A DNA stretch of 57,687 nucleotides from an uncultured Oscillospiraceae bacterium (lineage in GTDB: Bacteria; Bacillota; Clostridia; Oscillospirales; Oscillospiraceae), in NCBI GenBank assembly GCA_934590505.1, contig CAKTPC010000001.1, positions 1 to 57,687 on the forward strand. The letters run 5' to 3'. A model generated the notes under the pieces. It made no database searches. It worked only from the letters and a program-made list of their open reading frames with translations, and was not told the DNA's origin. Position numbers and translations under genes: made by a program. This document shows positions 13,535 to 32,796 of this stretch, one piece after another; the stretch's first letter is position 1, and the number at the start of each line of letters is the position of its first letter.

Positions 13535-13554
13535 GATATATGGGAATCTGTTTT

Positions 13555-14817: not shown

Positions 14818-14821
14818 AGAG

Positions 14822-15388: not shown

Positions 15389-15428
15389 ATTATTCCTCCA
15401 TAAACGGATATTGAATAAAGCCATTCAG

Positions 15429-15458
15429 AAAAGTCCGCCGGGATCCCCGGCGGACTTT
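15429..15458 (-). terminator. Rho-independent (bidirectional) terminator of the beta2-alpha2 operon
   Basis: 10-bp GC stem gtccgccggg (15433-15442) / cccggcggac (15446-15455), flanked by aaaa and ttt. Confidence 0.7.
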
Positions 15459-15479
15459 ATTGATTATGCTGGAGTGCGC

Positions 15480-18425: not shown

Positions 18426-18454
18426 TTGACAGGCGGAAAGGACGAAGATATTAT
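18426..18454 (+). promoter_or_regulatory. SigA-type promoter for the MFS transporter gene
   Basis: TTGACA (18426-18431), 17-nt spacer, TATTAT (18449-18454). An inverted repeat TTGAC-N10-GTCAA lies at 18382-18401 upstream. Confidence 0.4.
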
Positions 18455-18545: not shown

Positions 18546-19712
18546 ATGGAAAAATCTAAAGGCAAGATTCAGATCGGCATATATCTGATCGCTATTCTGA
18601 TGATGGGCGTTGTCGGCATCGCCAGCTCTCTCGGCGTTGTCGCGGCACAGTTCCCGGAGGTGTCCATGACCAACGTTCAGGTTGGCCTCATCTCTGTCCC
18701 CTGCATTGTTATAATGGTCGTTACTCTGCTGATGGGCAAGCTCATGCAGGTCATCTCCAAAAAGACGCTCACCATTATTGCGATCGTTCTCTTCCTTGTC
18801 GGCGGTATCGGGCCTGCTTTCATGAGCTCGTTCTCCGCTATCATCGTTCTGCGCGGCGTGTTCGGCGCGGGTGTCGGTATCCTTCAGGTCGTCAGCACAG
18901 CTCTTGTTGCCGAGAACTTTGAAGGCGCAGAGCGTGAGAAGGTTCAGGGCAATCTTCAGGCATTCCAGATGCTCGGCTGCGCGATCATGGTCTTTGTCGG
19001 CGGCTGGCTCGGCGCAAAGGGCTGGAACACCGCATTCTATGTTCACGCTCTTGCTCTTGTCTCTCTTGTTGCTGCAATAGTCTGCATTCCGAACCACAAG
19101 CCTGTCGCGGCTGCCAAGACCGACGACAAGCCCGCAGAGAAGGCACAGCTCACCGGCAAGATGTGGGTGTGGATGATCGTTGCATTCTTTGTGTTCTGCA
19201 CCGGTCAGATATACTCCAACTCCAACGCGTTCCTCGTTGCTGATAAAGGGATCGGCGATTCCGCCGCTTCAGGTCTGGGCATGGCGTTCTTCTGCGCAGG
19301 CGGCATCCTGATGGGATTCATGTACGGCAAGCTTGCAAAGGCTACCGGCAAGTTCACCATGGCTATCGGCTTCTTTGTGATGGCGCTTTCCTATGTCATC
19401 ATGGCCGCAGGCAGCAGCATTGCAGCGTTCTATATCGGCTGCCTTGTTCTTGGCCTTGGCATGTCCATAGTTATGCCTAATGTGTTCCTCAATGTCGGCA
19501 GTTCCGTAGCTCCGGCGGCAGTCGGTGTGGCTCTGTCCATCGCGACCTGTGTTCAGAACTTCGGTCAGTTCTGCAGCCCGTATATCGTCAATCCTATCGT
19601 CAACGCCATCGGCGGTACCGCAAGCGTAGTTTCCTTCTATGTCGCGGCAGTGCTCGGCGCGGTACTCGGTGTTGCAATGCTCGTTAAAGCGTTCTGCGAG
19701 AAAAAGGCCTGA
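18546..19712 (+). CDS. MFS transporter
   Basis: 388 aa, ~12 hydrophobic segments. MFS-like loop LMGKLMQVISKKT between TM2 and TM3. Confidence 0.8.
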   Translation: MEKSKGKIQIGIYLIAILMMGVVGIASSLGVVAAQFPEVSMTNVQVGLISVPCIVIMVVTLLMGKLMQVISKKTLTIIAIVLFLVGGIGPAFMSSFSAIIVLRGVFGAGVGILQVVSTALVAENFEGAEREKVQGNLQAFQMLGCAIMVFVGGWLGAKGWNTAFYVHALALVSLVAAIVCIPNHKPVAAAKTDDKPAEKAQLTGKMWVWMIVAFFVFCTGQIYSNSNAFLVADKGIGDSAASGLGMAFFCAGGILMGFMYGKLAKATGKFTMAIGFFVMALSYVIMAAGSSIAAFYIGCLVLGLGMSIVMPNVFLNVGSSVAPAAVGVALSIATCVQNFGQFCSPYIVNPIVNAIGGTASVVSFYVAAVLGAVLGVAMLVKAFCEKKA

Positions 19713-19843: not shown

Positions 19844-21256
19844 ATGTACGATTACGATATAGTATGTATCGGCGGCGGCCCCGGCGGCTCGGCCTGCGCG
19901 ATGCGCTCCGCTGACCGCGGCAAAAAGGTTGCAATAATTGAAGCACGTCCGAAGAACGGTTCAGGCGGTACCTGCGTTAACCGCGGCTGTATTCCGACCA
20001 AGGCGCTCATGGCCTCCACAAATCTTTATGCTTCCCTCAAGGAAGCCAAGGCCTACGGCATCAACATTGATATGTCTGCCGTTACGGTTGATTTCAAGGC
20101 GATAGACAAGCGCAGAAAAGGCGTCATAAACAATCTCGGCTTTGGCCTTGAGACCCTGCTGTGGAAGAAGTCCCGCGGTATCGATGTCATCAAGGGCAGA
20201 GCAAGACTTGTTGATGCGCATACCATTGAGGTCGACAACGGCAAGGAGAAGAAAATCGTCACTGCCGAGTATATCAACATCGCCGTCGGCTCCGAGCCTG
20301 CGGAGATACCGGCATTCCATGTCGACCATCAGAAGGTCATCACCTCCAATGAGATAATGGATTTCTCACGCCCCATGCCCAAGAGCATAGTCATCATCGG
20401 CTCCGGTGCTATCGGCCTTGAGTATGCCCATATTTACAACACCTTTGATATTCCCGTTACCATCGTCGAGATGATGCCGAATCTCGTTCCTGCTCTGCAC
20501 GAGCCCGAGATCACCGACGCTGTGCGCAAGTCCCTTGAGAAGCGCGGCATAGTCGTCAAGACCGGCTCCGGCATTGCAAACGTCGAGGTCCAGCCTGACG
20601 GCAGCGTCAAGTCCACTCTCGCAAACGGCGAGGAGCTTATCTCCGACGAAGTTCTCTGCGCCATCGGCCGCACGCTCAATACCCGTGATATGGGCCTTGA
20701 GGAAGTCGGCGTCAAGATGGAGAAGAACGGCCAGATCATCACCGACGAGCACATGCGCACCAGCGTGCCCAACATCTTTGCCGCAGGCGATGTCACCACC
20801 GGCACACAGCTTTCCGACAAGGCGCAGCGTCAGGGACTGGTCATTGCCGAGACGATAGCGGGCAATGACTATTATATAAACTACGACGTTATCCCCGTCA
20901 CCACCTTCCTCGAACCCGAGATCGCATGGGTCGGCTACACTCAGGCCGATGCGGAAGCCAAGGGGATCAAGACGATCTCCGGTTCTCTCGGCTTTGCGTC
21001 CAACGAGAAGATGATCGCTATCGGCAAGACCGAAGGCGTTATCAAGGTCGTTGCCCGAGAGGATGACCATGTTATCATCGGCTGCCAGATCTTCGGCCAT
21101 GAGGCCTGCGACCTGATCGCAGAGATGACCGTCGCTGTTGAGAACAAGATGACGCTTGAGCAGGTGTACAACACCATCCACCCGCACCCGACCGTGACCG
21201 AGCTTATCCTCGAAGTATGCAAGCGCGCGGTCAACCTGGCCTTTGATAAGGGCTGA
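19844..21256 (+). CDS. Dihydrolipoyl dehydrogenase-like class-I pyridine nucleotide-disulfide oxidoreductase (stand-alone E3)
   Basis: GGGPGGSACA dinucleotide fold, redox disulfide GGTCVNRGCIPTK, C-terminal HPHPTVTE His-Glu dyad. No E1, E2 or H-protein genes in the window. Confidence 0.8.
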   Translation: MYDYDIVCIGGGPGGSACAMRSADRGKKVAIIEARPKNGSGGTCVNRGCIPTKALMASTNLYASLKEAKAYGINIDMSAVTVDFKAIDKRRKGVINNLGFGLETLLWKKSRGIDVIKGRARLVDAHTIEVDNGKEKKIVTAEYINIAVGSEPAEIPAFHVDHQKVITSNEIMDFSRPMPKSIVIIGSGAIGLEYAHIYNTFDIPVTIVEMMPNLVPALHEPEITDAVRKSLEKRGIVVKTGSGIANVEVQPDGSVKSTLANGEELISDEVLCAIGRTLNTRDMGLEEVGVKMEKNGQIITDEHMRTSVPNIFAAGDVTTGTQLSDKAQRQGLVIAETIAGNDYYINYDVIPVTTFLEPEIAWVGYTQADAEAKGIKTISGSLGFASNEKMIAIGKTEGVIKVVAREDDHVIIGCQIFGHEACDLIAEMTVAVENKMTLEQVYNTIHPHPTVTELILEVCKRAVNLAFDKG

Positions 21257-21270: not shown

Positions 21271-21296
21271 CGCAGAGCCCCATTTGGGGCTCTGCG
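21271..21296 (+). terminator. GC-rich hairpin without a downstream U-tract (leaky terminator or processing site) between lpd-like and the cassette
   Basis: cgcagagcccc (21271-21281) / ggggctctgcg (21286-21296), 11-bp stem with a 4-nt loop. It is followed by AATGAAATG, not a T run. Confidence 0.35.
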
Positions 21297-21310: not shown

Positions 21311-22012
21311 GTGATTATGGAAAAAACACCGCTGAGGGATGCCTTCGTGCAGCGCAAAGATCGCTTCTTCCTGCTGGATAAGGGGTTTATAAACGCAGGC
21401 TTTACCGAAACGCTCGAACTGCTTGAGATCGGCTGCGCCGGTGGAGAAGCATCAGAGCACCTGTCTGGTAAAGGCTTTACAAAGCTCACGGCGATCGATA
21501 TTGACGGCACTGTACTTGAGCGAGCCCGAGAGTGTGCGCCGGGCTGCCGGTTTATCTGCGCCGATGCCTGTGCGATGCCGTTTGCGGACGAAAGCTTTGA
21601 CGGCGTTTTCAGTGAAGCGGCCTTTGCCGTGATACCGGATAAAGCTGCCGCAGCTGCAGAATATGCACGCATACTGAGAAGCGGCGGCAGATTCCTGCTG
21701 AATGATTTTGCACTCAGAAAGCCAACCGCGGCAGAGCGCCGGGATATACAAGGCATACCGTGCCTTGAAGGGGTGCAGACTGCTGAGGATTATATCGAAA
21801 TTTTTCGAAGTGCCGGGTTCAAAACGGTATATCAAAAAGAGGAATACCCGGAGCTTGTGCGCATTGCCGCGAGCCTGAGCCGTCGGTACGGAGTTCCGAT
21901 GAAAGATGTCGGCAGCTATATACAGTGCGCCTTCGGAAACAGCAAATATGTCAACGAGTTTTTCAAGAATACGGAAATGAGCTATTACCAGATCGTTTTT
22001 GAAAAGGAATAG
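21311..22012 (+). CDS. Class-I SAM-dependent methyltransferase (Methyltransf_11-like; ArsM-related scaffold lacking most of the ArsM cysteines)
   Basis: Motif I LLEIGCAGGEAS, motif II/III FDGVFSEAAF, ILRSGGRFLLND. C-terminal block IPCLEGVQTAEDYIEIFRSAGF. Confidence 0.8.
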   Translation: MIMEKTPLRDAFVQRKDRFFLLDKGFINAGFTETLELLEIGCAGGEASEHLSGKGFTKLTAIDIDGTVLERARECAPGCRFICADACAMPFADESFDGVFSEAAFAVIPDKAAAAAEYARILRSGGRFLLNDFALRKPTAAERRDIQGIPCLEGVQTAEDYIEIFRSAGFKTVYQKEEYPELVRIAASLSRRYGVPMKDVGSYIQCAFGNSKYVNEFFKNTEMSYYQIVFEKE

Positions 22013-22013
22013 A

Positions 22014-23282
22014 ATGGCGGATAGATTTTTATATAAGACAAAGAGCGTGTGCCCTGTGTGCCTGAAAGAGGTATACGCGGACATAGTCAGCCGTGACAGC
22101 GGGATATATATGGACAAATCCTGCGCGGAGCACGGCAGTTTTTCCACGCTTATATGGGCGGACAGCGCGGAGAACTATCTGCGCTGGCTGGAGTATGGCG
22201 GGATGGATGTAAACGGGCTGCCGCGGAATGAGGAAGAAGCGGACAAAGCCACCGGCGGGAAAGGTTTTGCATGCGAGGCATGTCAGCTCCCGGCGTCGTC
22301 CGCGCTTATGACGACGAACCGCTGCAACATGAACTGCCCCGTCTGCTTTACGCGCGACAAGAATGAACCGCTGCATGAGCCGAGCCTTGAGGAGTGCGAG
22401 GCTTTGATGAAGCGTTATAAGGAACTTGCGGGAGATGACGCGCTTATAGAATTCTGCGGCGGGGAGCCGACTGTCAGAAAGGACATATGCGACCTCACGA
22501 ACGCTGCCAGGACAATAGGCTTTGATTATATCCAGCTCAACACTAACGGAATAGAGCTGGCAAAAAATAAAGACCTTGCCCGCGCGCTGCGCTTCTGCGG
22601 GCTGACGACCGTGTATCTGGGCTTCGACGGGATGTCGGATAAGCCGTACTATGCAAAGTACGGTAAACCCATGCTCGATATAAAAAAGAAGGCAGTCGAG
22701 AACTGCGCTGCGGCGGGGCTTGCGGTAGTGCTTGTCTGCTGCGTGATACCCGGCGAGAACGATGGCGAGCTTGGGCAGATAATCGAATACGCAAAGCAGA
22801 ACATGCCGACAGTCAAGGGCGTGTATCTCCAGCCGATAAGCTACTTCGGGATATACCCGCACGATAAGGTCAGGCGCATAACCATACCTGACGTTATCCG
22901 CCGGCTCGATGAGCAGTGCGGGGATATATCCGCGCGGGATTTCGGACCGGGTGCATATGACCATGCGCAGTGCTCGTTCAACGCCTGCTATATGCTCGGC
23001 AAAGACGGCCGGCTCAAGGCGCTGACGCGCTTTTCAAAGCGTGAGCGTGAGGAAAACGCAGTCCACCGCCTGCGTAAAAATATGCGCGCAACATGGATGC
23101 CGAGTCAGAATAAAATGCTGACAGTCGGCGGAATGGCGTTTCAGGATAATTCAAACATCGACCTTATGCGCGTCCAGCGCTGCTCAATCCAGATAATCCA
23201 GCGCGACGGACGGATGATCCCGCTTTGCAGCAAATACCTCAGCAGCTGCGACGGACACAAAATATTTGACGGAATAGGATAA
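22014..23282 (+). CDS. Radical SAM protein, MJ0619 / tetraether-synthase-like architecture (copy 1)
   Basis: N-terminal knuckle SVCPVCLKEV...CAEHGSF, radical-SAM triad NRCNMNCPVCF, GGEPTVRKD, C-terminal QRCSIQ...PLCSKY. Start placed at ATG 22014, 1 nt after the methyltransferase stop (the tracked TTG is at 21999). Confidence 0.75.
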   Translation: MADRFLYKTKSVCPVCLKEVYADIVSRDSGIYMDKSCAEHGSFSTLIWADSAENYLRWLEYGGMDVNGLPRNEEEADKATGGKGFACEACQLPASSALMTTNRCNMNCPVCFTRDKNEPLHEPSLEECEALMKRYKELAGDDALIEFCGGEPTVRKDICDLTNAARTIGFDYIQLNTNGIELAKNKDLARALRFCGLTTVYLGFDGMSDKPYYAKYGKPMLDIKKKAVENCAAAGLAVVLVCCVIPGENDGELGQIIEYAKQNMPTVKGVYLQPISYFGIYPHDKVRRITIPDVIRRLDEQCGDISARDFGPGAYDHAQCSFNACYMLGKDGRLKALTRFSKREREENAVHRLRKNMRATWMPSQNKMLTVGGMAFQDNSNIDLMRVQRCSIQIIQRDGRMIPLCSKYLSSCDGHKIFDGIG

Positions 23283-23287
23283 ATATA

Positions 23288-24628
23288 ATGAGCAAGACCC
23301 TACAGTACGGCCTGTACGAGCTGTGCAGGATGAGGATAGAGCAGGACGCGGAATTTCGCGCGCAGTCCGCGCGCGGCGATTTCAGCGTTGTGGATGATGA
23401 GCTTTTTGACGAATACAGGCTCTGGCAGCTTAAAAAGACGGTGAAGCTTGTCAAGGAAAACAGCGCCTTTTACGGCAGACTCTACGCAAAGTACAATGTC
23501 GGTGCGGAGGATATCGGCAGCCTAAGCGATATTCAGAAGCTGCCATTCACAACACCGAAGGACCTTTCCGGTACGAGCTACAGCTTTCTCTGCACCTCGC
23601 AGGGAGAAGTGGAAAAGCCGGTGACATTTTTCTCCTCCGGATCGACCGGTATGAAAAAGCGTATCTTTTTCTCCCAACGCGATATACAGAAAATATTCGA
23701 GTTTCTCCCGCGCGGCATGAACACGGTCGTTGACCGTGATGAGGGGCGCTGTGTCGTGTTCCTCCAAAACTCGCAGGGGCGGGGGATCGGCGGCATATTG
23801 GCGCAGAGCCTTATCAGGTTCGGCATGCAGGCATGGGCGGCAGATCTTCACGACGACCCGGAGGAGCTGTATGAGCTCTCGGTAAAAAACAGGGTCAACG
23901 TCTGGTTCGGCGAGGCTATCACGATATATAGGGCCACGCGCATCCTCGCCGAGAAGCACGATCTTTCAAAGCTCGGCATGCAGTGCATCTTCATCACCAT
24001 GACGAATATCCCACAGAGCATGATAGATTATCTTGCCGAGACATGGCAGTGCCGCGTTTCGACGCACTATGGGCTCACCGAGTCCGGCTGGGGGCTTGCC
24101 GTAGACTGCGATGTTTGCAGCGGGTATCACTATAACGAGATAGACCACATCATAGAGATAGTCGACCCCGATACCGGAGCTCCGCTGCCGTACGGCGAGG
24201 AGGGCGAGGTCGTGCTGACAAACATCTCGCGCGACTGTATGCCGCTCGTGCGCTACCGCACGGGGGATATCGCGAAGCTCGAAAAAGCCGTCTGCGGCAG
24301 TCACTTGGATGTGCTCGGCCATATCGTCCGCCGCAAGGAGGGCGCGTATGTGCTTCAGGGGCATGAGCTTTTCCCGGCGCTGTTTGACGAGGTGCTCTTC
24401 GGTACTGACGGGCTGCTTGACTACCGCATATTCACCGACGGCAATAAGCTGACTTTCGAGATAGAGACGCTTGATCCGGAGCGGTTTGACGCCGACGGTC
24501 TGCGCAGCAGGCTGGCTGCACTTGAGGTCATGCAGGGACTTCCCGCACCGGAGATAACTCTGCTGCCGTGCGGCGCGCTGCGCGAGCACTGCTTTGAGAA
24601 AAAGCGCATTATGGAGAGAACGCCGTGA
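23288..24628 (+). CDS. Adenylate-forming enzyme, phenylacetate-CoA ligase / coenzyme F390 synthetase family
   Basis: SSGSTGMKKR (P-loop motif), YGLTE, RYRTGD, C-terminal EKKRI lysine region. 446 aa. Confidence 0.8.
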   Translation: MSKTLQYGLYELCRMRIEQDAEFRAQSARGDFSVVDDELFDEYRLWQLKKTVKLVKENSAFYGRLYAKYNVGAEDIGSLSDIQKLPFTTPKDLSGTSYSFLCTSQGEVEKPVTFFSSGSTGMKKRIFFSQRDIQKIFEFLPRGMNTVVDRDEGRCVVFLQNSQGRGIGGILAQSLIRFGMQAWAADLHDDPEELYELSVKNRVNVWFGEAITIYRATRILAEKHDLSKLGMQCIFITMTNIPQSMIDYLAETWQCRVSTHYGLTESGWGLAVDCDVCSGYHYNEIDHIIEIVDPDTGAPLPYGEEGEVVLTNISRDCMPLVRYRTGDIAKLEKAVCGSHLDVLGHIVRRKEGAYVLQGHELFPALFDEVLFGTDGLLDYRIFTDGNKLTFEIETLDPERFDADGLRSRLAALEVMQGLPAPEITLLPCGALREHCFEKKRIMERTP

Positions 24629-25395
24629 ACGAGGAATTTGAGCGTAAGCTGGATGAGCTTGCGCGGCTTGTAACGCAGGCAAAGCACACTGTGCTCTTCG
24701 GCGGAGCGGGAATGTCCACCGAGAGCGGGCTTGCGGATTTCCGCAGCGCGGTGTCCGGGCTTTATAACAATAAGGAGTTCTACGGTTATTCCGCGGAGCG
24801 GATACTCTCGCGGGAATTCTTTGAAGAGCACCCGGAAATAATGTTCAATTTCTACCGCACCGAGCTGCTGAACCTCGATGCGCGCCCGAATCTGGCACAC
24901 TTCGCGCTGGCGTGGATGGAAGAAAAGGGGATGCTTTCCTCAATCATCACGCAGAACGGCGACGCGCTGCACCAGCGCGCCGGCAGCAGAAAGGTCTTTG
25001 ACCTGCATGGGAACGTGTATAAAAACACCTGCCTCAAGTGCGGGAAGAGCCACGATGTGCGCCGTGTGAAATACTGCGAGGGGATACCGTACTGCGAGTG
25101 CGGCGGCATTATCCGCCCCGGAATAGTCCTTTTCGGCGAAACGCCCGATCCCGATGTGATCTTCGGCTGCGTGAAGGAGATCGCGCAGTGCGACCTTCTG
25201 ATCGCGGCGGGAACATCGCTGAGAGTGTCGTCCGCCGGACGGCTGCTTGACCGCTTCAGAGGTATGCTTGTGATACTTAACAATGATGAGACCGCGCTTG
25301 ACGACCGCGCAGACCTGATAGTACGCGGAAAAATGGGCGAGATATTCTCCGCTCTGTGGGAAAGGCTTAAAAGATATGAACGAGATACTGCATGA
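24625..25395 (+). CDS. NAD-dependent protein deacylase (Sir2/CobB family sirtuin)
   Basis: GAGMSTESGLADFRS, ITQNGDALH, DLHGN (catalytic His), zinc ribbon CLKCG...CECGG. The GTG start overlaps the ligase stop (GTGA). Confidence 0.85.
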   Translation: MNEEFERKLDELARLVTQAKHTVLFGGAGMSTESGLADFRSAVSGLYNNKEFYGYSAERILSREFFEEHPEIMFNFYRTELLNLDARPNLAHFALAWMEEKGMLSSIITQNGDALHQRAGSRKVFDLHGNVYKNTCLKCGKSHDVRRVKYCEGIPYCECGGIIRPGIVLFGETPDPDVIFGCVKEIAQCDLLIAAGTSLRVSSAGRLLDRFRGMLVILNNDETALDDRADLIVRGKMGEIFSALWERLKRYERDTA

Positions 25396-26701
25396 GACTG
25401 AGAGCCTCTGCCCAGTCTGCCTGAAGAAAATACCTGCCCGCTATGAGCGCATAGACGGCAAAGCCTATATGGTCAAGGACTGCCCGGAGCACGGACACTT
25501 CAAGGTGTTGTTCTGGCGCGACGCGGATATGTATGTCAACTGGATGCGGCAGGGGATACATGCCCCCGCCAAAGACAGAGGCCGCCCGGAGGAACACGGC
25601 TGCCCATATGACTGCGGCCTGTGCGACGCGCACCACAGCGGCACCTGTACATCGATACTGGAGATAACCTACCGCTGCAATATGCAGTGCAAAATATGCT
25701 TTGCCGACGCGAATGCGGAGCGCTTCGACCCGGACAGAGAGCAGATACGCAGGATGTTCAAAACGGCGCTGGGAGCTAACAAGTATTGCTCCGTGCAGCT
25801 CAGCGGCGGCGAGCCGACAGTGAGAGATGATCTGCCTGAGCTTGTGCGCATGGGCAAGGAGATGGGGATAATCCACCTCCAGGTAAACTCAAACGGTATC
25901 CGAATCGCGCAGGATATAGACTATCTGCGTCAGCTGAAGGAGGCCGGGATCGACCTGATATACCTCCAGTTCGACGGTGTGGATGATGAGATATACCGCA
26001 CGATACGCGGCAGGGACATGCTGGATATAAAGCTGAAAGCCATCGAAAACTGCGAGAAGCTCGGTGTCGGCGTGCTGCTTGTCCCCGTTGTGATCCCGGG
26101 CGTGAACCTGCACAGGCTCGGCGAGATAGTTGCATTTGCGAAAAAGCATATCCCGACTGTCAAGGGTATCCACTTCCAGCCGGTCAGCTATTTCGGCCGC
26201 TATCCGGGACAGACTCCGCCGGACGAGAGCCGCTGCGGACTTGACGATGTGCTCCACGCGCTGACAGAGCAGTGCTCGGAAGAACTTGCGATGGACAACT
26301 TTGTTCCGCGCAAGCAGTTTGACCCGCACTGTGATTTTTCCAGCACCTATTATCTTGATGAGAACGGGAAGCTCATCTGCATGACGCAGTTCCACCAGAA
26401 CGACTGCGATACCGAGCAGACAGACTTCGTAGAAAAGACCAATAAATACACCGACAAGCGCTGGCGTATACAGGACGGCGCAGAAGAAAAGGCAAAGACC
26501 TCGCCGCTCATGAAGTTTGCACTGCGCACGCTGACGCATTCGTTCTCGATATCCGGCAAGGGCTTTCAGGACGTGTGGAATATCGACCTCGGCAGGCTTC
26601 AGGGCTGCTGTGTCCATATGATAACCGGAGACGGTGACGTTGTTCCGTTCTGCGCGTTCCACCTCACCAGCGAGACCGGAGAGAGACTGTATCATAACTG
26701 A
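25376..26701 (+). CDS. Radical SAM protein, MJ0619 / tetraether-synthase-like architecture (copy 2, with complete auxiliary Cys motif)
   Basis: SLCPVCLKKI...CPEHGHF, GCPYDCGLCDAHHSGTC, YRCNMQCKICF, GGEPTVRDD, QGCCVHM...PFCAFH. Overlaps the sirtuin gene by 20 nt. Confidence 0.8.
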   Translation: MNEILHETESLCPVCLKKIPARYERIDGKAYMVKDCPEHGHFKVLFWRDADMYVNWMRQGIHAPAKDRGRPEEHGCPYDCGLCDAHHSGTCTSILEITYRCNMQCKICFADANAERFDPDREQIRRMFKTALGANKYCSVQLSGGEPTVRDDLPELVRMGKEMGIIHLQVNSNGIRIAQDIDYLRQLKEAGIDLIYLQFDGVDDEIYRTIRGRDMLDIKLKAIENCEKLGVGVLLVPVVIPGVNLHRLGEIVAFAKKHIPTVKGIHFQPVSYFGRYPGQTPPDESRCGLDDVLHALTEQCSEELAMDNFVPRKQFDPHCDFSSTYYLDENGKLICMTQFHQNDCDTEQTDFVEKTNKYTDKRWRIQDGAEEKAKTSPLMKFALRTLTHSFSISGKGFQDVWNIDLGRLQGCCVHMITGDGDVVPFCAFHLTSETGERLYHN

Positions 26702-26719
26702 TGGTAAGGGAGGATCACA

Positions 26720-26917
26720 ATGAAACGAATGGGCATTGACCCGGAAATGCGCCTCGGCGAGGCGATGGAGCTGTATCCGCAGTCGTTCCAGATGTTCCGT
26801 CAGATCGGTATGTGCTGCGTAAACCCGGATAACGAAAACCTGACAGTGCACGAGCTGTGCACGAGTCTCGGCGTAGAAACGGACAGCTTTCTCGAAGCGG
26901 TCAATTCTATGATATAG
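26720..26917 (+). CDS. DUF1858-like small protein (hybrid-cluster-protein-associated redox-disulfide-type domain)
   Basis: 65 aa with a GGGAGG SD. IDPEMRLGEAMELYPQSFQMFRQIGMCCVNP...LTVHELC...GVETDSFLEAVN matches the DUF1858 pattern. Confidence 0.6.
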   Translation: MKRMGIDPEMRLGEAMELYPQSFQMFRQIGMCCVNPDNENLTVHELCTSLGVETDSFLEAVNSMI

Positions 26918-26955
26918 GATCGACCGCGCGAAGGGCGCGTTTTTATATTGAATAT

Positions 26956-26971
26956 ATCGAAATATTTCGAT
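26956..26971. promoter_or_regulatory. Perfect 16-nt palindrome (candidate ArsR-type operator) inside a promoter-like element
   Basis: ATCGAAATATTTCGAT lies between TTGAAT (26948-26953) and TGTATATAG (26971-26979), 30 nt upstream of the SBP start. Confidence 0.45.
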
Positions 26972-26999
26972 GTATATAGAAGAAAAAAGGAGAATCCAA

Positions 27000-28148
27000 A
27001 TGAAAAAGCTTGTAAGTATCATCATTCTTGTCTGCATGCTTTCCGCGCTGGTTCTGACCGGATGCGGCAGCGAGCAGACTCCTGCTGCTGACAGCCAGCC
27101 CGCAGATGCAGCCGCCCCTGCCGAGACGGAAGCTGCTGCGGCGGAAACACCCAAAGAGCCCGTTACTCTCAAGGTCGGCCTGCTCGGCAAGTCAGTGAAG
27201 CCGGTCGGCGTACTCGTCGCCGATGCCATGGGCTACTTTGACGAGGAGGGCGTGAAGGTCGAGTTTGAAAAGGTATCCAGCATGAACGATGCCTATATGG
27301 CAGTTTCCACCGGTGACCTCGACGTTTACCTCTTTTCCAGCACCGCTGCCGCGACCTTTATTTCCCAGGGCACTACCACCCTGCGCGTGTTCGGCGGCAC
27401 CGCTGCCGAGGGCTCCGAGATAATCGCCGCTAAGGGCACGCCGCATATCACCGGGGTCGACGACCTGCTTGGCAAGACCATTGCCTGCCAGATGCCCGAG
27501 ACCGGCCAGATGGTTCTGAAGAACTATCTGCTCGAGCAGGGCTATACCATCGGCGCACCCGGTGAGGGCGCGGACGTCACCTTCGTGTATGTCAACGACG
27601 GCAACACCGCAGTCGAGGGCTGCACCAAGGGCGAGTATGACTACTGCATCACGAACTCCTGCCTTGGCTATTATGCCGAGAGCTTCGGCGCGGAGCTTGT
27701 CGGAAGCGTAAAGCAGTTTGTCGAGACCTATCCCTGCTGCCGCCAGACCTGCAGTCAGGAGGCTTATGAGAACAAGTTCGACGCACTCGTCGCCTTTGAG
27801 ACCGCGACCCTGCGCGGATACCGCTACTACCTCGAAAACGAGGAAGCCACCCTTGATATCCTTGAAGCCTACGCCGGTGAGGATAGAGAGTTCCTGAAAG
27901 CGCAGGTCTACGGCACGGATACATACACTCCGGTAATGCGTCTCTCGCTCGACCCGGATAAGACAGCCTGCGTCAAATTCTATGAGGCGATGGCGAACCT
28001 CGGCGAGATCACCGACACCGTAGAGGTCGATTGGAACGATTATGTTGTCACCGACGTTTATGGCACTGCCCTCAAGACCCTTGCCGAGCGCGAGAGCGAT
28101 GTCGCCCTCTGGCAGGAGTTGACCGAGTACTTCAATACTCACGACTGA
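27000..28148 (+). CDS. ABC transporter substrate-binding lipoprotein (NMT1/THI5-like, NitT/TauT class)
   Basis: Start at MKKLVSIIILVCMLSALVLTGCGS (lipobox) with an AAAGGAG SD. Ala/Pro/Glu linker. Followed by a NitT/TauT-type ATPase and permease. Confidence 0.8.
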   Translation: MKKLVSIIILVCMLSALVLTGCGSEQTPAADSQPADAAAPAETEAAAAETPKEPVTLKVGLLGKSVKPVGVLVADAMGYFDEEGVKVEFEKVSSMNDAYMAVSTGDLDVYLFSSTAAATFISQGTTTLRVFGGTAAEGSEIIAAKGTPHITGVDDLLGKTIACQMPETGQMVLKNYLLEQGYTIGAPGEGADVTFVYVNDGNTAVEGCTKGEYDYCITNSCLGYYAESFGAELVGSVKQFVETYPCCRQTCSQEAYENKFDALVAFETATLRGYRYYLENEEATLDILEAYAGEDREFLKAQVYGTDTYTPVMRLSLDPDKTACVKFYEAMANLGEITDTVEVDWNDYVVTDVYGTALKTLAERESDVALWQELTEYFNTHD

Positions 28149-28149
28149 T

Positions 28150-28929
28150 ATGCCGTCTATTGACTTGCGCGCCGTGCGCTTTTGTTATAAGAACGCGCGG
28201 CAGAAAACAGAAGCGCTGCATGGGGTCGACCTCAGCATTGCCGACGGCGAATTTGTCTGCGTCATCGGCCCGTCGGGCTGCGGCAAAAGCACGCTCCTGC
28301 GTCTGCTTGCCGGATTGGATATGCCCGATGGCGGAGAAATAAGCATCGGCGGACAGCCGGTGGAAGGGCCGGGAGCCGACCGAATGATAGTCTTTCAGGA
28401 CTATGCGCTGTTTCCATGGCTCACTGCGGAAAAGAACATCAGCTTTGCCCTCAGCAGGGCAAAGCGTGTTCCGCGCGCCGAGGCGAAGCGCACGGCGGCG
28501 GAGTACCTGCAAAAGGTAGGTATGGCACAGGCCGCGGATTACTATCCGTGTCAGCTCTCCGGTGGTATGAAGCAGCGCGTCGCGATAGCACGCGCTCTTG
28601 CAATGGACACGGACATCCTCCTGCTCGACGAACCGTTCGGCGCGCTGGATGCCAAGATACGTGCTTCTCTTCAGGAGCTGCTGCTGGCGCTCTGGGCAAA
28701 CGACGGTGGGAAGAAAAAGACTGTCGTCTTTGTCACGCATGATATCAACGAGGCGCTTATTCTTGCTGACCGTATTGTTTATATGCAGCCCGGAAAGATA
28801 GCCGGTGAGCTCAGGATAGACATACCTCGCCCGCGCAGGAATGTTGAAAGCAGCGAGGAGTTCGGCGCGTACCGCAGGACGCTCATGCGGCTTTTTGAGG
28901 GCGAGGATACGGAGGTGGCGGAGCTGTGA
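28150..28929 (+). CDS. ABC transporter ATP-binding protein (NitT/TauT/SsuB-like)
   Basis: GPSGCGKSTLLRLLAGL, MIVFQDYALFPWLT, LSGGMKQRVAIARAL, LLLDEPFGALD. Confidence 0.9.
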   Translation: MPSIDLRAVRFCYKNARQKTEALHGVDLSIADGEFVCVIGPSGCGKSTLLRLLAGLDMPDGGEISIGGQPVEGPGADRMIVFQDYALFPWLTAEKNISFALSRAKRVPRAEAKRTAAEYLQKVGMAQAADYYPCQLSGGMKQRVAIARALAMDTDILLLDEPFGALDAKIRASLQELLLALWANDGGKKKTVVFVTHDINEALILADRIVYMQPGKIAGELRIDIPRPRRNVESSEEFGAYRRTLMRLFEGEDTEVAEL

Positions 28930-29846
28930 AAAAAGGGAATATAGCGTTCGCCGCTGCACATGTGCTCCTTGCAGCTCTTCTCGCGATAGTCGTCTTTGCA
29001 GCAAAGCAGCGCCCAACAGTCCGCGCCGGCGGCTCGATGCTCGTCGGGCTTGCAATCATAGAGCTGCTGTTTCTTGCAAAGTATTTCTCAGCGCGCAGAA
29101 ATAGAAACGAAACTTCGTCGTGCGATATAATGATTTTCGTCTGGCTGCTGCTTATCGCGTGGGAACTGTGCACCTCGGTGTTCAACATCGCACACCCGGT
29201 TCTTGTGCCGTGCCCGGAGAATGTTTTTGATACCTTCCGCGAACAGTGGCGCGAGATGCTTTTGAACGTCGCGTATTCCATGGAACTGCTGACGATCGGC
29301 TTTGTGACCGGTATGGTGCTGGCTGTGCTGCTCGGCCTTATAGCGGGCTGGTTCCCGCGTCTGCGCGGCTTTGCCTATCCGATCGCAAATGTCATGGCGC
29401 CGATACCCGCTGTGGTGTTCTCGCCGTATCTTGTCGCACTGATGCCGAGCTTTCGCAGTGCGTCCGCGCTCGTCATAATACTCGGCGTGTTCTGGCCGAC
29501 GTTTCTCACGACCATCAACCGCGTGGAGTCTATGGATCCGCGCATACTTGACTCTGCCCGTATGCTGAATCTTCGCAGCTCGGATATGATCTGGCGAGTG
29601 CTTTTGCCGTATGTCATTCCGGGCATCGTTTCCGGACTCAAGGTATCTGTTACAACGTCTCTGCTCATGCTGAACTTTGCCGAGCTGATGGGCGCGGCGC
29701 ACGGTATGGGCTACTATATCCAGAACAGCATAACCTACGCAAACTATACGCATGCCGTTGCCGGCATCGTATGTATCGCTATCGTTGTCACTGTACTCAA
29801 CAAACTTGTGACCGCATTCCAGAGGAAAGCGATCGTCTGGAGGTAA
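28926..29846 (+). CDS. ABC transporter permease (NitT/TauT family)
   Basis: 306 aa, hydrophobic, single permease module. The GTG start overlaps the ATPase stop (GTGA). Confidence 0.8.
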   Translation: MKKGNIAFAAAHVLLAALLAIVVFAAKQRPTVRAGGSMLVGLAIIELLFLAKYFSARRNRNETSSCDIMIFVWLLLIAWELCTSVFNIAHPVLVPCPENVFDTFREQWREMLLNVAYSMELLTIGFVTGMVLAVLLGLIAGWFPRLRGFAYPIANVMAPIPAVVFSPYLVALMPSFRSASALVIILGVFWPTFLTTINRVESMDPRILDSARMLNLRSSDMIWRVLLPYVIPGIVSGLKVSVTTSLLMLNFAELMGAAHGMGYYIQNSITYANYTHAVAGIVCIAIVVTVLNKLVTAFQRKAIVWR

Positions 29847-29850
29847 GAAT

Positions 29851-30606
29851 ATGGAATCAATAGATAAGCTCTGTTGCTGCTGCGGGCAGGAGGAGAACTT
29901 CAATAACTGTCTCATCTGCGGCAAGCCCCTGATCTATTCCGGGAAAACCGTTATGCGCCGCTGCGCCGTGTGCGGAGAGGAGAAACCGTCGGATGCCGTG
30001 TGCGAGGACGGACATTTTGTGTGCGACGAGTGCCATAATAAGGACGGCGCGGCTGTATGCGCAAGGCTCCTGAACACGGACGAGAAGGACCCGATAAAAA
30101 TTTTCCTTGACGTCGTGAAGCTTCCGTCGGTACACATGCACGGACCGGAGCACCACTGCATTGTGCCATGCGTACTTCTCACCGCGTATAAAAATAACGG
30201 CGGGGATATCGATCTGCGCGAATGTCTGGACGAGGCGTGGAAGCGCGGCAAGAAGCTCTCGGGCGGCTCGTGCGGTTTCCTCGGTGTGTGCGGTGCGGCG
30301 GCGGGAGCCGGTATCTATGCAAGCATCCTTTCCGAGGCTACCCCGCTTACGGCGGAGGTCTGGGCTGTGCCGCAGAGAATGACCATGCGCTGCCTTGAGA
30401 CGCTGGTCGCAACAGGCGGTCCGCGCTGCTGCAAACGCACCGGGCGGCAGTCTATCGAGACGGCGGTCGAGTTTACAAAGGAACGCTTCGGCGTAGATAT
30501 GCCCGTGAGTCGGCCGCGCTGTGAGTTCTTCCCGAGAAATAAAGAATGCCTGCATGAGCGCTGCCCGTATTTTCCTGCCGTCAGCATAAAGACCGGGGAG
30601 GCATGA
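29851..30606 (+). CDS. Cysteine-rich protein: N-terminal zinc ribbons plus a C_GCAxxG_C_C/DUF5714-like putative redox domain
   Basis: CCCCG, CLICG, CAVCG, CEDGHFVCDECH, then HGPEHHCIVPC, GSCGFLGVCGAAAGAG (GCAxxG-like) and GGPRCCKRTG (C-C). GGAGG SD. Confidence 0.6.
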   Translation: MESIDKLCCCCGQEENFNNCLICGKPLIYSGKTVMRRCAVCGEEKPSDAVCEDGHFVCDECHNKDGAAVCARLLNTDEKDPIKIFLDVVKLPSVHMHGPEHHCIVPCVLLTAYKNNGGDIDLRECLDEAWKRGKKLSGGSCGFLGVCGAAAGAGIYASILSEATPLTAEVWAVPQRMTMRCLETLVATGGPRCCKRTGRQSIETAVEFTKERFGVDMPVSRPRCEFFPRNKECLHERCPYFPAVSIKTGEA

Positions 30607-30610
30607 TATC

Positions 30611-31006
30611 ATGAACGAGTATCTCAGAGTGTTCCGGGCACTGTCCGACGAGAACCGTATAAAGATCCTTGAGAAGCTGAGCGAGGGTGAGCAGTGTGCC
30701 TGCTGCCTGCTGGAGGGATTGGGGATCAGTCAGTCCACGCTGTCGCACCATATGAAGATCCTGTGTGAGTCCGGGCTTGTGCGCGGTGAGCGCGTAGGCG
30801 TATGGATGTATTATTCCATCGACGGCGAGGGCTGCCGCCATGCCGGGAAGCTCCTCAACTCAGTTGCCAACGGCGATATGAAACGCTGGCTCAGATTCTT
30901 CAGGATCGTTGCACGTATTGTAAAGCCGTTTGCCGGGAAAGCACCAGAATCAAAATCGGACTATGCACGTTGCTGCTGCGACGGTACAGCGGCAGAAAAG
31001 TGCTGA
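30611..31006 (+). CDS. ArsR/SmtB-family metal(loid)/thiol-responsive transcriptional repressor
   Basis: FRALSDENRIKILEKLSEGEQCACCLLEGLGISQSTLSHHMKIL (wHTH with a CxCC site in the alpha3 position), plus the C-terminal Cys cluster ARCCCDG...EKC. Confidence 0.85.
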   Translation: MNEYLRVFRALSDENRIKILEKLSEGEQCACCLLEGLGISQSTLSHHMKILCESGLVRGERVGVWMYYSIDGEGCRHAGKLLNSVANGDMKRWLRFFRIVARIVKPFAGKAPESKSDYARCCCDGTAAEKC

Positions 31007-31382: not shown

Positions 31383-31826
31383 TTATTCCCTGCGCCAGTG
31401 CCTGAGTCCGGGGACGACCGCTTCCATGTGCGCGCGCACCTGTTCGGGCGGCCAGGCATCGCTTGCCATATGCTCAACGCAGAAGTCGATAAGCTGTTCC
31501 GGGCTTGAATACTTGAACTCGCCGCCCGTGTAGCACCACTTGCAGTATTCCTCGTTGAGCTCACCGTCGGGCTCCGCGCTGATCGTTGAATCGTCAAGCG
31601 GCATCCCGCAGCACTGACATACAAGCTGCTGCGGTGAGCCTAAAAGCGTGTTGATCGAAACTCTAAAGAGCTTTGACAGAAGCTTCAGCGCCTCAGTGTT
31701 CGGCACGGTCTCGCCGGTTTCCCAGCGAGATACGGCCTGCCGGGTGACGAAAAGCTTTTCCGCAAGCTCGTCCTGAGAAAGCTCCGCCTTAGTGCGCAGT
31801 TCGCGTATAACATCCTTGGTCTCCAT
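31383..31826 (-). CDS. XRE-family HTH regulator fused to a C-terminal putative zinc-ribbon domain
   Basis: IRELRTKAELSQDELAEKLFVTRQAVSRWETGETVP (HTH_3), then CQCCGMPL...EYCKWCYTGGEF (zinc-ribbon pattern). Confidence 0.8.
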   Translation of the reverse strand: METKDVIRELRTKAELSQDELAEKLFVTRQAVSRWETGETVPNTEALKLLSKLFRVSINTLLGSPQQLVCQCCGMPLDDSTISAEPDGELNEEYCKWCYTGGEFKYSSPEQLIDFCVEHMASDAWPPEQVRAHMEAVVPGLRHWRRE

Positions 31827-31920: not shown

Positions 31921-32796
31921 TCACACGACCAGGTTTATAAACATACCGCTTACCGCGCTGAGGATGAACAGCAGCGCAATGACCGTCAGGTTCTCGCGGC
32001 GGTTCTTGTTCGTGCGCAGCAGCACCAGCAGGCCGATGCCGGCGTTTGACAACAGCCCCGCGAACAGCCCGCCGAGCCCGATGATACCGGAGAGATACGC
32101 CTCAGTTATGACAACGGAGATGGAGCAGTTCGGTATAAGCCCGAAGAGCGCGAGCAGCAGTTCCCCGACGACGGGCGCTGTAAACACCGTTGCGCCCAGC
32201 CGCTCAATGCCGACAAGCTCCAATATTATATTCAGCGCGAAGGTGACGGCGATCAGCATCACGGCGATCTTCACCGTGTGCTTGAGCGCCGAGAGCCACA
32301 CGCTGCCCTCCTCCTCGTCGCATTCGCAGTGCTCGCGCTCGCAGAAGCTGTGGATGTTTTTGCCCCGCGCGAAGAGCCTGCTGCCGAAAGCGTCAACAAG
32401 GTAGCCCAGGACAATGCCCATCACGGCCTTTGCCGCGACTATCACGGCGATCTGCCCGATGTCTGTCGCGCCCTTCCCGTCTGCAAGCGAGGAGAGCATG
32501 ACCGGCAGCATCTCATCCGAGGTGGCAAAAAATACCGCGAGCATCGTCCCTGCGCTTATCGAGCCTGTGGAAAACAGCGTTGCCGCCGCACCGGATATGC
32601 CGCACTGCGGTATTGCGCCGAGCAGACCGCCCAGCGCGGGCCCTGCCTTGCGGGAGTATGAATGCAGTATGCCCTCGTCAAGACGCTTGCTGTTTTCGAG
32701 CATTTCCATAAGCAGATATGCGAGGAACAGTATAGGTATGCTCAGTGCGCCGTCCTTCAGCGCGTCAAGCGCGCAGTCGAGTATAAGTTCAGTCAA
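31921..32796 (-). CDS. Putative 10-TM metal transporter (ArsP_2/DUF2899-like; the family call is tentative)
   Basis: TTG start with AGGAGA SD. Polytopic membrane protein with a PQCGISGAAATLF / ATSDEMLP pair and a cytoplasmic His/Cys/acidic loop HSFCEREHCECDEEEG. Confidence 0.5.
   Translation of the reverse strand: MTELILDCALDALKDGALSIPILFLAYLLMEMLENSKRLDEGILHSYSRKAGPALGGLLGAIPQCGISGAAATLFSTGSISAGTMLAVFFATSDEMLPVMLSSLADGKGATDIGQIAVIVAAKAVMGIVLGYLVDAFGSRLFARGKNIHSFCEREHCECDEEEGSVWLSALKHTVKIAVMLIAVTFALNIILELVGIERLGATVFTAPVVGELLLALFGLIPNCSISVVITEAYLSGIIGLGGLFAGLLSNAGIGLLVLLRTNKNRRENLTVIALLFILSAVSGMFINLVV

Follow-up and report, generated by a model that had tools for sequence, protein, structure and literature searches.

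The locus, its core and its extent

The window examined here is a 57,687-nt stretch of contig CAKTPC010000001.1 (positions 1 to 57,687, forward strand; NCBI GenBank assembly GCA_934590505.1) from an uncultured Oscillospiraceae bacterium, and it carries a gene cluster with two paralogous radical S-adenosylmethionine (SAM) enzymes that resemble the tetraether synthase Tes (GDGT-MAS; MJ0619). An initial annotation, made from the sequence alone, had described the locus as one cassette of 11 genes (g1 to g11) starting at 21311. The open reading frame (ORF) listing of the window contains all 11 of them on the + strand (21311-31006), and together with the translations it confirms the dense packing, i.e. 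overlaps of 4 nt at 24625-24628 and 28926-28929 and of 20 nt at 25376-25395, as well as the protein motifs that had been quoted. The proposed left boundary did not hold, since the conserved system includes the gene at 19844-21256 and further genes back to 8765. g1-g11 form only the right-hand half of a full system of about 22 kb (8765-31006), and the cluster has about double the size originally given. This extent follows from the fact that the partners frequently added to the core elsewhere (an activase, HGD-D proteins, DUF7479, an 89-aa protein and DUF5714) all lie within the window. The locus is the all-cysteine Oscillospiraceae version of a neighbourhood that is covered by the NCBI models TrsS, DVU_1553, DVU_1556 and DVU_1557.

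Proteins were assigned by NCBIfam and Pfam profile searches with curated bit-score cutoffs. A scan of species-representative genomes for homologous loci returned 40 loci, from Oscillospiraceae, Lachnospiraceae, Sporobacter, Anaerovoracaceae, Sedimentibacter, Peptostreptococcaceae, Sphaerochaetaceae and Desulfovibrionaceae; among the carriers are the cultured Schaedlerella arabinosiphila DSM 106076 (Lachnospiraceae) and a metagenome-assembled genome (MAG) from the Hadza gut (L005) that is 98% identical to the window. For the gene-content counts every window protein was assigned to 42 loci, 22 of them near (at least 60% identity) and 20 far; the counts are raw and many of the contigs are truncated. 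The core consists of TrsS (g5), its g2-type partner, a ligase, a methyltransferase and a reductase of the lipoamide dehydrogenase (LPD) type, encoded in the window as follows:

19844-21256, + strand: LPD-type flavoprotein disulfide reductase (TIGR01350, 456.8 bits, above the cutoff of 408.8)
21311-22012, + strand: g1, class-I SAM methyltransferase, DVU_1556-like (Pfam Methyltransf_11)
21999 (or ATG at 22014)-23282, + strand: g2, Tes-like radical-SAM partner paralogue (misses TrsS and Tes)
23288-24628, + strand: g3, PaaK-type adenylating ligase of the DVU_1553 family (NF045666, 320.3 bits, above 300)
25376-26701, + strand: g5, Tes-like radical-SAM enzyme of the TrsS family (NF045646, 534.4 bits, above 490)

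The co-occurrence of this core extends over the 42 loci and over Bacillota, Spirochaetota and Desulfovibrionaceae, that is, three phyla. The counts for core and other genes are:

g2-type partner: near 19/22, far 20/20 (total 39/42)
ligase: near 19/22, far 19/20 (38/42)
methyltransferase: near 15/22, far 15/20 (30/42)
reductase: near 14/22, far 16/20 (30/42)
any HGD-D: near 14/22, far 14/20 (28/42)
DUF5714: near 11/22, far 8/20 (19/42)
sirtuin: near 16/22, far 0/20
DUF1858: near 14/22, far 0/20
solute-binding protein and permease of an ATP-binding cassette (ABC) importer: near 9/22, far 1/20
ArsR: near 5/22, far 1/20
major facilitator superfamily (MFS) transporter: near 7/22, far 0/20
ArsP and XRE: near 0/22, far 0/20

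The radical-SAM genes are therefore co-conserved with g1, g3 and often g10 across taxa, as had been envisaged, but this is not true of all neighbours: the sirtuin (g4), the DUF1858-like protein (g6) and the MFS transporter are seen only in the Oscillospiraceae clade, and the ABC importer (g7-g9) and ArsR (g11) almost only there. Equally conserved upstream partners had been missed, namely the LPD-like reductase, the HGD-D proteins with their activase, the DUF7479 protein and the 89-aa protein. The frequent additions to the core are usually an HgdC-type activase with an HGD-D alpha-beta pair, DUF7479, the 89-aa protein and either DUF5714 or a C_GCAxxG_C_C protein. In far loci TrsS and its partner are neighbours, spaced by -4 to +39 nt in 18/20, and the ligase comes next. 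Homologs at 53-58% identity are arranged as DUF7479, methyltransferase, BcrAD/HgdC activase, Pyr_redox_2 reductase, three HGD-D genes, TetR-like gene, TrsS, second Tes-like radical-SAM gene and AMP-binding ligase.

The Tes-like pair and the other core enzymes

The g5 protein matches the TrsS model over profile positions 2-440 of 441, whereas g2 misses it with 376.8 bits, and both stay under the Tes cutoff (NF045702, 450 bits) with 357 and 303 bits, respectively, so that g2 is a member of neither family. With 34% identity (E 1e-80) the two are paralogues, as had been proposed from PTVKGVYLQPISYFGIYP and PTVKGIHFQPVSYFGRYP, and the CPVC...C(A/P)EHG, CNMxCxxC and GGEPT motifs are present in the translations. 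The Tes/MJ0619-like layout was likewise recognised correctly: g5 matches the sequence of PDB entry 7tol with E 3e-93, and its model superposes on GDGT-MAS (7tom) with E 3.5e-37 and template modelling (TM) scores of 0.78 (query) and 0.69 (target), followed by MoaA as second match at 0.42.

Pfam finds only Radical_SAM and Zn_ribbon_HMPTM domains in g2 and g5. This bears on the idea that the genes form a cassette of SPASM-type maturases for a ribosomally synthesised and post-translationally modified peptide, a different clade that the initial annotation had itself named as contradicting its reading. Although there are weak, generic radical-SAM matches to models of SPASM maturases (26-60 bits, where the cutoffs are 265-650), neither protein has a SPASM or twitch domain in the Pfam search, the full-length fold match is GDGT-MAS, and none of the small ORFs that are conserved is precursor-like; they encode zinc-ribbon or redox proteins. 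We regard a peptide maturase cassette as effectively refuted.

For the comparison of metal sites we used the GDGT-MAS ligands C9/C12/C33/H36, C73/C77/C80 plus a His, the CX3CX2C motif and the C-terminal cluster (Lloyd 2022, PMC9433317). In an alignment of 43 TrsS-type and 40 g2-type sequences, 43/43 TrsS-type proteins retain the Cys ligands of every site, from the rubredoxin-like one through the N-terminal [4Fe-4S] and radical-SAM triads to the C-terminal cluster; in addition, C91 is invariant in them and C138 near-invariant. As such, g5 is predicted to have the four metal sites of GDGT-MAS, one rubredoxin-like and three of the [4Fe-4S] type. The g2-type proteins keep the rubredoxin-like, radical-SAM and C-terminal sites, have lost the C73/C77/C80 triad and have gained C153 directly before GGEPT (40/40) and C248 (38/40); the alignment predicts that the N-terminal auxiliary cluster is consistently lost in the partner paralogue. 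TrsS and the g2-type protein would form an obligate heteropair. The equivalent of Met439, the labile ligand of the C-terminal cluster, is present in 40/40 g2-type and 34/43 TrsS-type sequences.

The likeness of g5 to GDGT-MAS (7TOL, 7TOM) thus comprises the full-length fold, the N-terminal Zn_ribbon_HMPTM domain and the Cys ligands of the rubredoxin-like, N-terminal, radical-SAM and C-terminal sites. The differences are that TrsS is bacterial, about 65 residues shorter with a shorter C-terminal half, and has a polar linker between core and C-terminal cluster (residues 340-386, 66% charged or polar); that Cys438 of GDGT-MAS is replaced by Gly in all members; that TrsS is paired obligately with a paralogue lacking the N-terminal cluster; and that its genomic context is one of ligase, reductases and methyltransferase instead of lipid genes.

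Since the closest characterised relative is GDGT-MAS, one could imagine that the pair remodels membrane lipids by joining acyl tails to membrane-spanning lipids resembling brGDGTs (glycerol dialkyl glycerol tetraethers of the branched type), with the HGD-D proteins and the activase converting ester to ether in the manner of PlsA and Ger and the methyltransferase adding branches. The plasmalogen synthase PlsA and Ger are HGD-D/BcrAD-type proteins. Their activity is described in PMC13159169, and we liken the HGD-D/activase proteins of the cluster to them; bacterial Tes homologs have moreover been proposed as brGDGT enzymes, a role that is a hypothesis only (PMC8941075). Such homologues also occur in bacteria not known to make biphytanyl chains (Lloyd 2022, PMC9433317). 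In the cluster itself, both paralogues fall short of the Tes cutoff, no glycerolipid genes lie in or near the clusters, TrsS is shorter and its linker polar, and the TetR/ArsR regulators, importers and PaaK-type ligase read as substrate-inducible metabolism. Clostridial membrane-spanning lipids are made by Mss, a radical-SAM enzyme of Thermotoga and Clostridia that resembles the present pair in its postulated Tes-like sp3-sp3 coupling in anaerobic bacteria, but acts on membrane acyl chains. When a confirmed Tes was used as the BLAST query, the genomes that encode the two confirmed Mss enzymes gave no Tes homolog, which by that test makes Mss not Tes-like, and Tes homologs are absent in all (iso-)diabolic-acid producers tested (PMC13159169). 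From our point of view, lipid remodelling is for these reasons a distinctly improbable function.

A scan of 44 loci for in-frame TGA codons, with patterns that required Cys, found none in the TrsS genes, and none was found in the methyltransferase or DUF5714 genes. Selenocysteine (Sec) recoding was also rejected for the split TrsS gene at L044:7599-8928 and the long match at L039:10001-11640, both being frameshifts or assembly problems; the g2-type gene of L036 is a pseudogene. Two loci carry a divergent second Tes-like radical-SAM gene (L010:15112-17456 and L009:10755-13180, both on the - strand), the product of which is 36-38% identical to g5 and keeps the N-terminal cluster triad. This gene adjoins its own PaaK-like ligase gene (29-30% identity to g3), from which we conclude that the pairing of ligase and Tes-like enzyme recurs independently.

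For g3, the assignment as a PaaK-type adenylating enzyme stood up to the family model, and the protein further matches PDB entry 4r1l (E 1e-34) and contains the motifs SSGSTGMKKR, YGLTE and YRTGD; the ortholog in L001 reaches 327 bits against NF045666. A C-terminal Lys pair (K438, K439) is conserved to at least 95% and is, by likeness to other adenylating enzymes, a plausible acylation site. The ligase family additionally shows conserved Cys residues (C102 and C255 in 37/37, C274 and C336 in 35/37) that are, to our knowledge, not features of canonical PaaK and that may respond to redox conditions or make up a metal site.

The call of g1 as a class-I SAM methyltransferase holds as well. Its best match is NF045667 (DVU_1556) with 107.3 bits, under the cutoff of 155, and the L001 ortholog reaches 93 bits; both are positional DVU_1556 orthologs outside the equivalog threshold. 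C42 (motif I) and C151 are the only conserved Cys of the family, and the best match of g1 to an ArsM-type model (58 bits, cutoff 510) is far from membership. The reductase is predicted to be of the LPD type by profile and active-site motifs (CVNRGC at 44-49, HPHPTVTE at 446-453); it stays under the MerA cutoff (TIGR02053, 316 bits against 454) and lacks the C-terminal Cys pair. One further element lies between the genes of the reductase and g1, in a spacer of 54 nt:

21271-21296, no strand assigned: GC-rich hairpin with an 11-bp stem and no T-run on the + strand, which might act in RNA processing or stability or as an attenuator

The initial annotation had suggested NCBIfam models named after DVU_1553, DVU_1555, DVU_1556 and DVU_1557 for these ORFs. 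This proved right for g3, which passes DVU_1553, and in part for g1, for which DVU_1556 is the best family without reaching its cutoff; the small-protein model DVU_1557 falls not on g6, which has no match, but on the ORF at 12480-12671. The window thus resembles the TrsS/DVU_1553-DVU_1557 neighbourhood in two proteins above and two below family cutoffs, and the same gene set is found in a Desulfovibrionaceae MAG (L042). It differs in being all-Cys without Sec; in lacking a C_GCAxxG_C_C (DVU_1555-type) protein, with DUF5714 instead; in having its TrsS-partner pair split by the ligase and the sirtuin; and in adding the sirtuin, DUF1858, MFS, ABC importer and ArsR. TrsS, MbdU and MduS are credited as selenoprotein families to Haft & Tolstoy 2025 (mSystems 10:e0141724) in a review (PMC13188914). 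The NCBIfam accessions 45645 (DVU_1557), 45646 (TrsS), 45648 (MbdU), 45663, 45666 (DVU_1553) and 45667 (DVU_1556) are nearly consecutive, which suggests a single curation effort that recognised the neighbourhood. Our literature search found no mention of DVU1553-1557, DUF5714 or DUF7479, and a search joining double-cubane, radical SAM and methyltransferase returned nothing relevant.

The upstream module, the accessory genes and the g7-g11 unit

In the following, HGD-D refers to the 2-hydroxyglutaryl-CoA dehydratase family, BCR to benzoyl-CoA reductase and DCCP to double-cubane cluster protein. The genes upstream of the MFS transporter are:

8765-10195, + strand: HGDa, HGD-D family (Pfam HGD-D, 72.5 bits; homologs in related loci)
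10220-10792, + strand: TetR-like protein of 190 aa (Pfam TetR_N, 26.5 bits)
10956-12113, + strand: HGDb, HGD-D family, DCCP-like (Pfam HGD-D, 151.6 bits; NF040772, 133 bits, under 350)
12193-12462, + strand: conserved 89-aa protein (MDFKTANLK...; tblastn homologs in 23 loci)
12480-12671, + strand: DUF7479/DVU_1557-like zinc-ribbon protein of 63 aa with four Cys (homologs in 22 loci)
12675-13493, + strand: HgdC/BcrAD-type ATPase activase (TIGR00241, 235.6 bits, above 125.4; Pfam BcrAD_BadFG)
13540-14817, + strand: HGDc, HGD-D family (Pfam HGD-D, 47.7 bits)
15480-16919, - strand: HGDd, HGD-D alpha-like subunit (Pfam HGD-D, 79.9 bits)
16919-18073, - strand: HGDe, HGD-D beta-like/DCCP-like subunit (Pfam HGD-D, 207.5 bits; NF040772, 177 bits, under 350)

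A single locus thus encodes five HGD-D paralogues and one activase (8765-18073). HGDa is followed by the TetR-like gene in the same order in distant loci, and a homolog of the latter lies upstream of TrsS in 11/20 of them, making the TetR-like protein a candidate for regulating the conserved system. HGDd-type proteins have a CxxC...C triad (C146, C149 and C177, conserved in 27/27) and are paired with HGDe in 21 loci. The top PDB matches of HGDe are the DCCP entries 7yyl (E 3.8e-35) and 6eno (E 1.3e-34), with BzdN next. As in 2-hydroxyglutaryl-CoA dehydratase, class I BCR and DCCP with their HgdC activators, the window combines an HgdC-type ATPase above its cutoff with alpha- and beta-like HGD-D proteins and a CoA-ligase-type enzyme. 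Unlike in these systems, no subunit reaches an equivalog cutoff, there are five paralogues, and the HGDe-type alignment shows no fully conserved Cys, the six-Cys double-cubane set being not found conserved in HGDe, whereas HGDd has its triad.

The 89-aa protein is always encoded immediately upstream of DUF7479 and aligns only to the C-terminal 75 residues of NF045663 (pyridine nucleotide-disulfide oxidoreductase/dicluster-binding protein). The 12480-12671 protein shares 49-65% identity with Pfam DUF7479 proteins encoded in L001, L002 and L004, and reaches 28.7 bits against DVU_1557 (NF045645), under the cutoff of 60. Two further ORFs were rejected as members of the system, one at 14822-15424 (- strand) because it is not conserved and one at 15195-15863 because it is a shadow of HGDd.

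The accessory genes, along with g10 as a frequent component, and the elements of the gap between g6 and g7 are:

18546-19712, + strand: MFS transporter (Pfam MFS_1, 126.5 bits)
24625-25395, + strand: g4, CobB-type sirtuin of the Oscillospiraceae clade (NF001752, 240.7 bits, above 221)
26720-26917, + strand: g6, clade-specific DUF1858-like small Cys protein (DUF1858/TIGR03980, sub-threshold)
26925-26949, + strand: terminator-like hairpin with T-run, CGCGCGAAGGGCGCG then TTTTTATATT, ending the g1-g6 unit
26956-26971, no strand assigned: perfect 16-nt palindrome ATCGAAATATTTCGAT, candidate operator for ArsR (g11)
27000-28148, + strand: g7, lipoprotein solute-binding protein of a NitT/TauT-type ABC importer (Pfam NMT1, 52.3 bits)
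28150-28929, + strand: g8, ABC ATPase (TIGR01184, 246 bits, and SaoA, 236 bits, both under cutoff)
28926-29846, + strand: g9, ABC permease (Pfam BPD_transp_1; TauC, 71.7 bits, and SaoP, 69.5 bits, both under cutoff)
29851-30606, + strand: g10, zinc-ribbon + DUF5714 Cys-rich protein (Pfam DUF5714, 209.7 bits)
30611-31006, + strand: g11, ArsR/SmtB metalloregulator of narrow lineage (NF033788, 88.7 bits, above 55)

The earlier calls of sirtuin, ArsR, NitT/TauT-type importer and DUF1858-like protein all hold in the profile searches. Within the Oscillospiraceae clade the sirtuin always adjoins TrsS, and a genuine in-frame SIR2-TrsS fusion (P0034, 692 aa; ...KRMKRDINMNEILHETESLCP...; metagenomic, 6 contigs) suggests that the two are functionally linked in this clade. 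g6 stays below threshold for the DUF1858/prismane-associated domain models (DUF1858, 27.3 bits, cutoff 32.2; TIGR03980, 31.7 bits, cutoff 45). g7 has the lipobox LTGC and reaches 52.8 bits against SsuA_fam, under 163; its start is most likely 27000 (MKKLVS...) instead of 26970, because the upstream extension carries a stop in L024.

That g10 contains a zinc ribbon was seen correctly at the outset, whereas its supposed GCAxxG-like part did not hold: the protein has no Pfam or NCBIfam match to C_GCAxxG_C_C (TIGR01909/PF09719), and kinship of DUF5714 with the cluster-linked C_GCAxxG_C_C proteins was rejected at an hhalign probability of 0.3%. To MbdU, a metal-binding double selenoprotein, it shows a partial match of its N-terminal half (135 bits, cutoff 600). 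The AlphaFold2 model of g10 (pLDDT 85.7) has no relative in the PDB by Foldseek (best E 1.6, TM at most 0.22), and a PDB sequence search found none either. For DUF5714 there are about 4700 homologs, and numerous residues of the family are invariant: the zinc-ribbon set C20/C23/C38/C41; C51/H55/C58/C61/H62; an HGPEHH motif; C141/C147; C193/C194; and C224/C233/C238. Judging from model and alignment, DUF5714 is possibly a new metal- or cluster-binding fold.

The C_GCAxxG_C_C gene that belongs to the TrsS-type cluster of L041 (3533-4051) has an in-frame TGA at 3602-3604, precisely where the first Cys is otherwise invariant (FN-TGA-AQST; FNCAQS in L001, L019 and L044), and its product is probably a selenocysteine form. 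Such a form agrees with the name '(seleno)protein' given to TIGR01909 and TrsS, and it argues for redox or ligand activity of the small proteins.

The packing of the genes is interrupted in the 82-nt gap at 26918-26999, for which the hairpin, the palindrome and the promoter-like TTGAAT (26948-26953) that had been described could all be confirmed. The palindrome is the only perfect match in the window, where 0.17 matches with no more than 3 mismatches would be expected by chance; another match, with 2 mismatches, lies in g1 (21794-21809) and was rejected as a second operator copy, being probably due to chance. Palindromes of the type ATATCGA-N6-TC(G/A)ATAT lie between the hairpin and the ribosome-binding site of g7 in 5/5 loci with ArsR and upstream of g7 in 0/5 loci with ABC genes but without ArsR. 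As the palindrome tracks ArsR, we read it as a candidate ArsR operator and g7-g11 as an autoregulated unit apart from MFS-reductase-g1...g6, ahead of which a strong promoter-like site (11/12 matches) lies at 18426-18454. g7-g11 hence look like their own ArsR-controlled unit, and the metal(loid)-responsive control that had been ascribed to the whole cassette applies instead to this sub-operon of a narrow lineage.

It might even be argued that g7-g11 are an unrelated uptake or metal-buffering operon that in this lineage merely lies beside the TrsS cluster. The terminator-like hairpin and the promoter/operator region between g6 and g7, the tracking of ArsR by the palindrome and the absence of ABC genes and ArsR from most distant loci would agree with such a coincidence. 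Yet DUF5714 recurs in 8/20 far loci, often flanking TrsS and the ligase, and an ABC importer of the same type is present in the Lachnospiraceae cluster L044 as well as in 9 near loci, so that we consider an unrelated operon rather unlikely.

The regulator g11 carries a CACC motif in its putative DNA-binding region and a C-terminal CCCx7C, a combination that is typical of thiophilic metal(loid) sensors. Just downstream of the cluster, on the opposite strand, lie a gene for an XRE-type helix-turn-helix/Zn_ribbon_2 regulator (31383-31826) and one for an ArsP-type 'arsenic efflux protein' (31921-32796; NF037962, 248 bits, cutoff 100); with 0/42 loci, both were rejected as members of the system. 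At L002:17671-20060, about 4 kb downstream from a distant TrsS cluster, there are genes with SBF, LMWPc and ArsR-like matches, along with one for a small radical SAM/SPASM protein; we take SBF to be ACR3-type and LMWPc to be ArsC-type. Ars genes are here found in the vicinity of a TrsS cluster for a second time and independently, possibly by coincidence.

These features, the ArsR/SmtB motifs, the adjacent ArsP gene and the SBF and LMWPc genes of L002, raise the question whether the cluster makes, modifies or detoxifies an organic compound of As, Se or Hg. Radical SAM chemistry would then make or cleave a C-metalloid bond, followed by ArsM-like methylation, with Cys/Sec proteins binding the metal and ArsR exerting control. 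The secondary matches of g1 to ArsM-type families, the partial match of g10 to MbdU and the selenoprotein forms in related clusters (L041; review PMC13188914) can be counted in its favour. There is some likeness, too, to the SAO system (selenocysteine-assisted organometallic; Haft & Gwadz 2023), namely the NitT/TauT-type ABC importer, with SaoA and SaoP as second-best families for g8 and g9, the Cys/Sec-rich accessory proteins and the style of an uncharacterised, selenoprotein-rich neighbourhood. The window differs from SAO in that all Sao matches are below cutoff and the core enzymes are others, and no MerB-like SaoL, SaoB, SaoC or SaoT was found among the window genes scanned. Conservation speaks against organometal(loid) handling as well, with ArsR in only 5/22 near and 1/20 far loci and ArsP absent also downstream in L006 and L008. 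The As(III) site of ArsM needs several Cys, whereas the methyltransferase has one candidate catalytic Cys (C151) besides that of motif I. The reductase lacks the MerA Cys pair and stays under the MerA cutoff, and the core contains a PaaK-type ligase and HGD/BCR-type enzymes, which typically belong to the thioester chemistry of organic acids. Taken together, we find an organometal(loid) role unlikely.

Near the distant TrsS cluster of L001, on the opposite strand, genes for a URO-D/MtaA-like methyltransferase and for an ABC transporter (L001:19780-20712, - strand) recall the mlp clusters of PMC10418091; that paper makes no mention of radical SAM enzymes.

Proposed function and its meaning

No characterised pathway matches the gene set, as the initial annotation had stated. 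The reading that we prefer, with a probability of about 0.5, is that an organic acid, imported and activated by the ligase, undergoes radical C-H functionalisation, combined with ATP-driven reduction and thiol-disulfide recycling; its mechanistic specifics are proposed with low confidence. An organic acid would be imported, in the Oscillospiraceae lineage by the ABC or MFS transporter, and adenylated or thioesterified by the PaaK-type ligase. The TrsS-partner heteropair would then use a 5'-deoxyadenosyl radical to abstract hydrogen from an unactivated sp3 carbon and form a C-C or C-S bond via the C-terminal auxiliary cluster, as in GDGT-MAS, on a substrate that would be soluble and not a membrane lipid. 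C138 of TrsS and C153 of the partner, beside the SAM-binding GGE motif, are candidate redox-active thiols. The activase-driven HGD/BCR-like enzyme might reduce the thioester at low potential or dehydrate it, and the methyltransferase might cap the product. Finally, the LPD-type reductase and the DUF7479, DUF1858, DUF5714 or C_GCAxxG_C_C proteins, elsewhere with Sec, could recycle a dithiol/disulfide.

Several points weigh against this reading. The clade contains no biochemically studied member, and each mechanistic step is one that we infer. Instead of a CoA ester, the product of the ligase could be an acylated protein or no more than an adenylate. Neither HGD-D genes nor the activase were seen in the compact loci L001, L026, L036, L038 and L041, so that this module may be optional. 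At the Met439 position the g5 protein of the window has Lys395, where most TrsS have Met, and the polar 340-386 segment, which hints at a non-lipid substrate, weighs only weakly against a lipid. Moreover, no Rfam element or riboswitch was found in the window or in four representative loci, and thus no ligand-specific element that would indicate the substrate.

One could go further and propose that the TrsS-partner pair performs a radical-SAM chemistry that is itself new, acting on the soluble, ligase-activated acid either by sp3 coupling or by insertion of S or Se to give a dithiol or dithiolane metabolite; we think this unlikely to be the case. In the S-insertion variant, which is pure speculation, the reaction would stop at the Tes-type intermediate with carbon bonded to cluster sulfide, the LPD-like reductase would cycle the metabolite, and metal(loid) binding by it would be possible. 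LipA, BioB and MiaB/RimO offer a parallel in working principle only, as the sulfide of an auxiliary cluster bonds to substrate carbon, in Tes as an intermediate, and a lipoamide-dehydrogenase-type reductase is encoded in the window cluster. They differ in that neither protein of the pair belongs to them by sequence, and sulfur insertion by TrsS is likewise purely speculative.

The novelty of the cassette is lower than first thought, because g5 belongs to the already named TrsS family. The core protein families are catalogued (TrsS, DVU_1553-type) and biochemically unstudied, and the discovery value is limited since NCBI curators had already built and named families for most core proteins. New here are the extent of 8765-31006, the split into core and accessory genes and the predicted loss of the N-terminal cluster in the partner, and also the candidate ArsR operator, the sirtuin-TrsS fusion and the cultured carrier organism.

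Overall, the cluster ties Tes-like and DCCP-like enzymes to a ligase, a methyltransferase and a thiol-disulfide module in at least three phyla. It thereby bears on the role that hundreds of GDGT-MAS/Tes homologs play in bacteria without tetraether synthesis (Lloyd 2022, Zeng 2022) and on the physiological substrates of DCCP-like ATP-driven reductases, and its carriers include abundant human and animal gut Oscillospiraceae and Lachnospiraceae. A heteropair with one cluster-lacking member, a defined core, a candidate operator and the cultured S. arabinosiphila provide experimental handles on a chemistry that could be new. If the TrsS-partner pair does perform such a new chemistry, the cluster would provide the first physiological context for DCCP-like reductases and bacterial Tes homologs.

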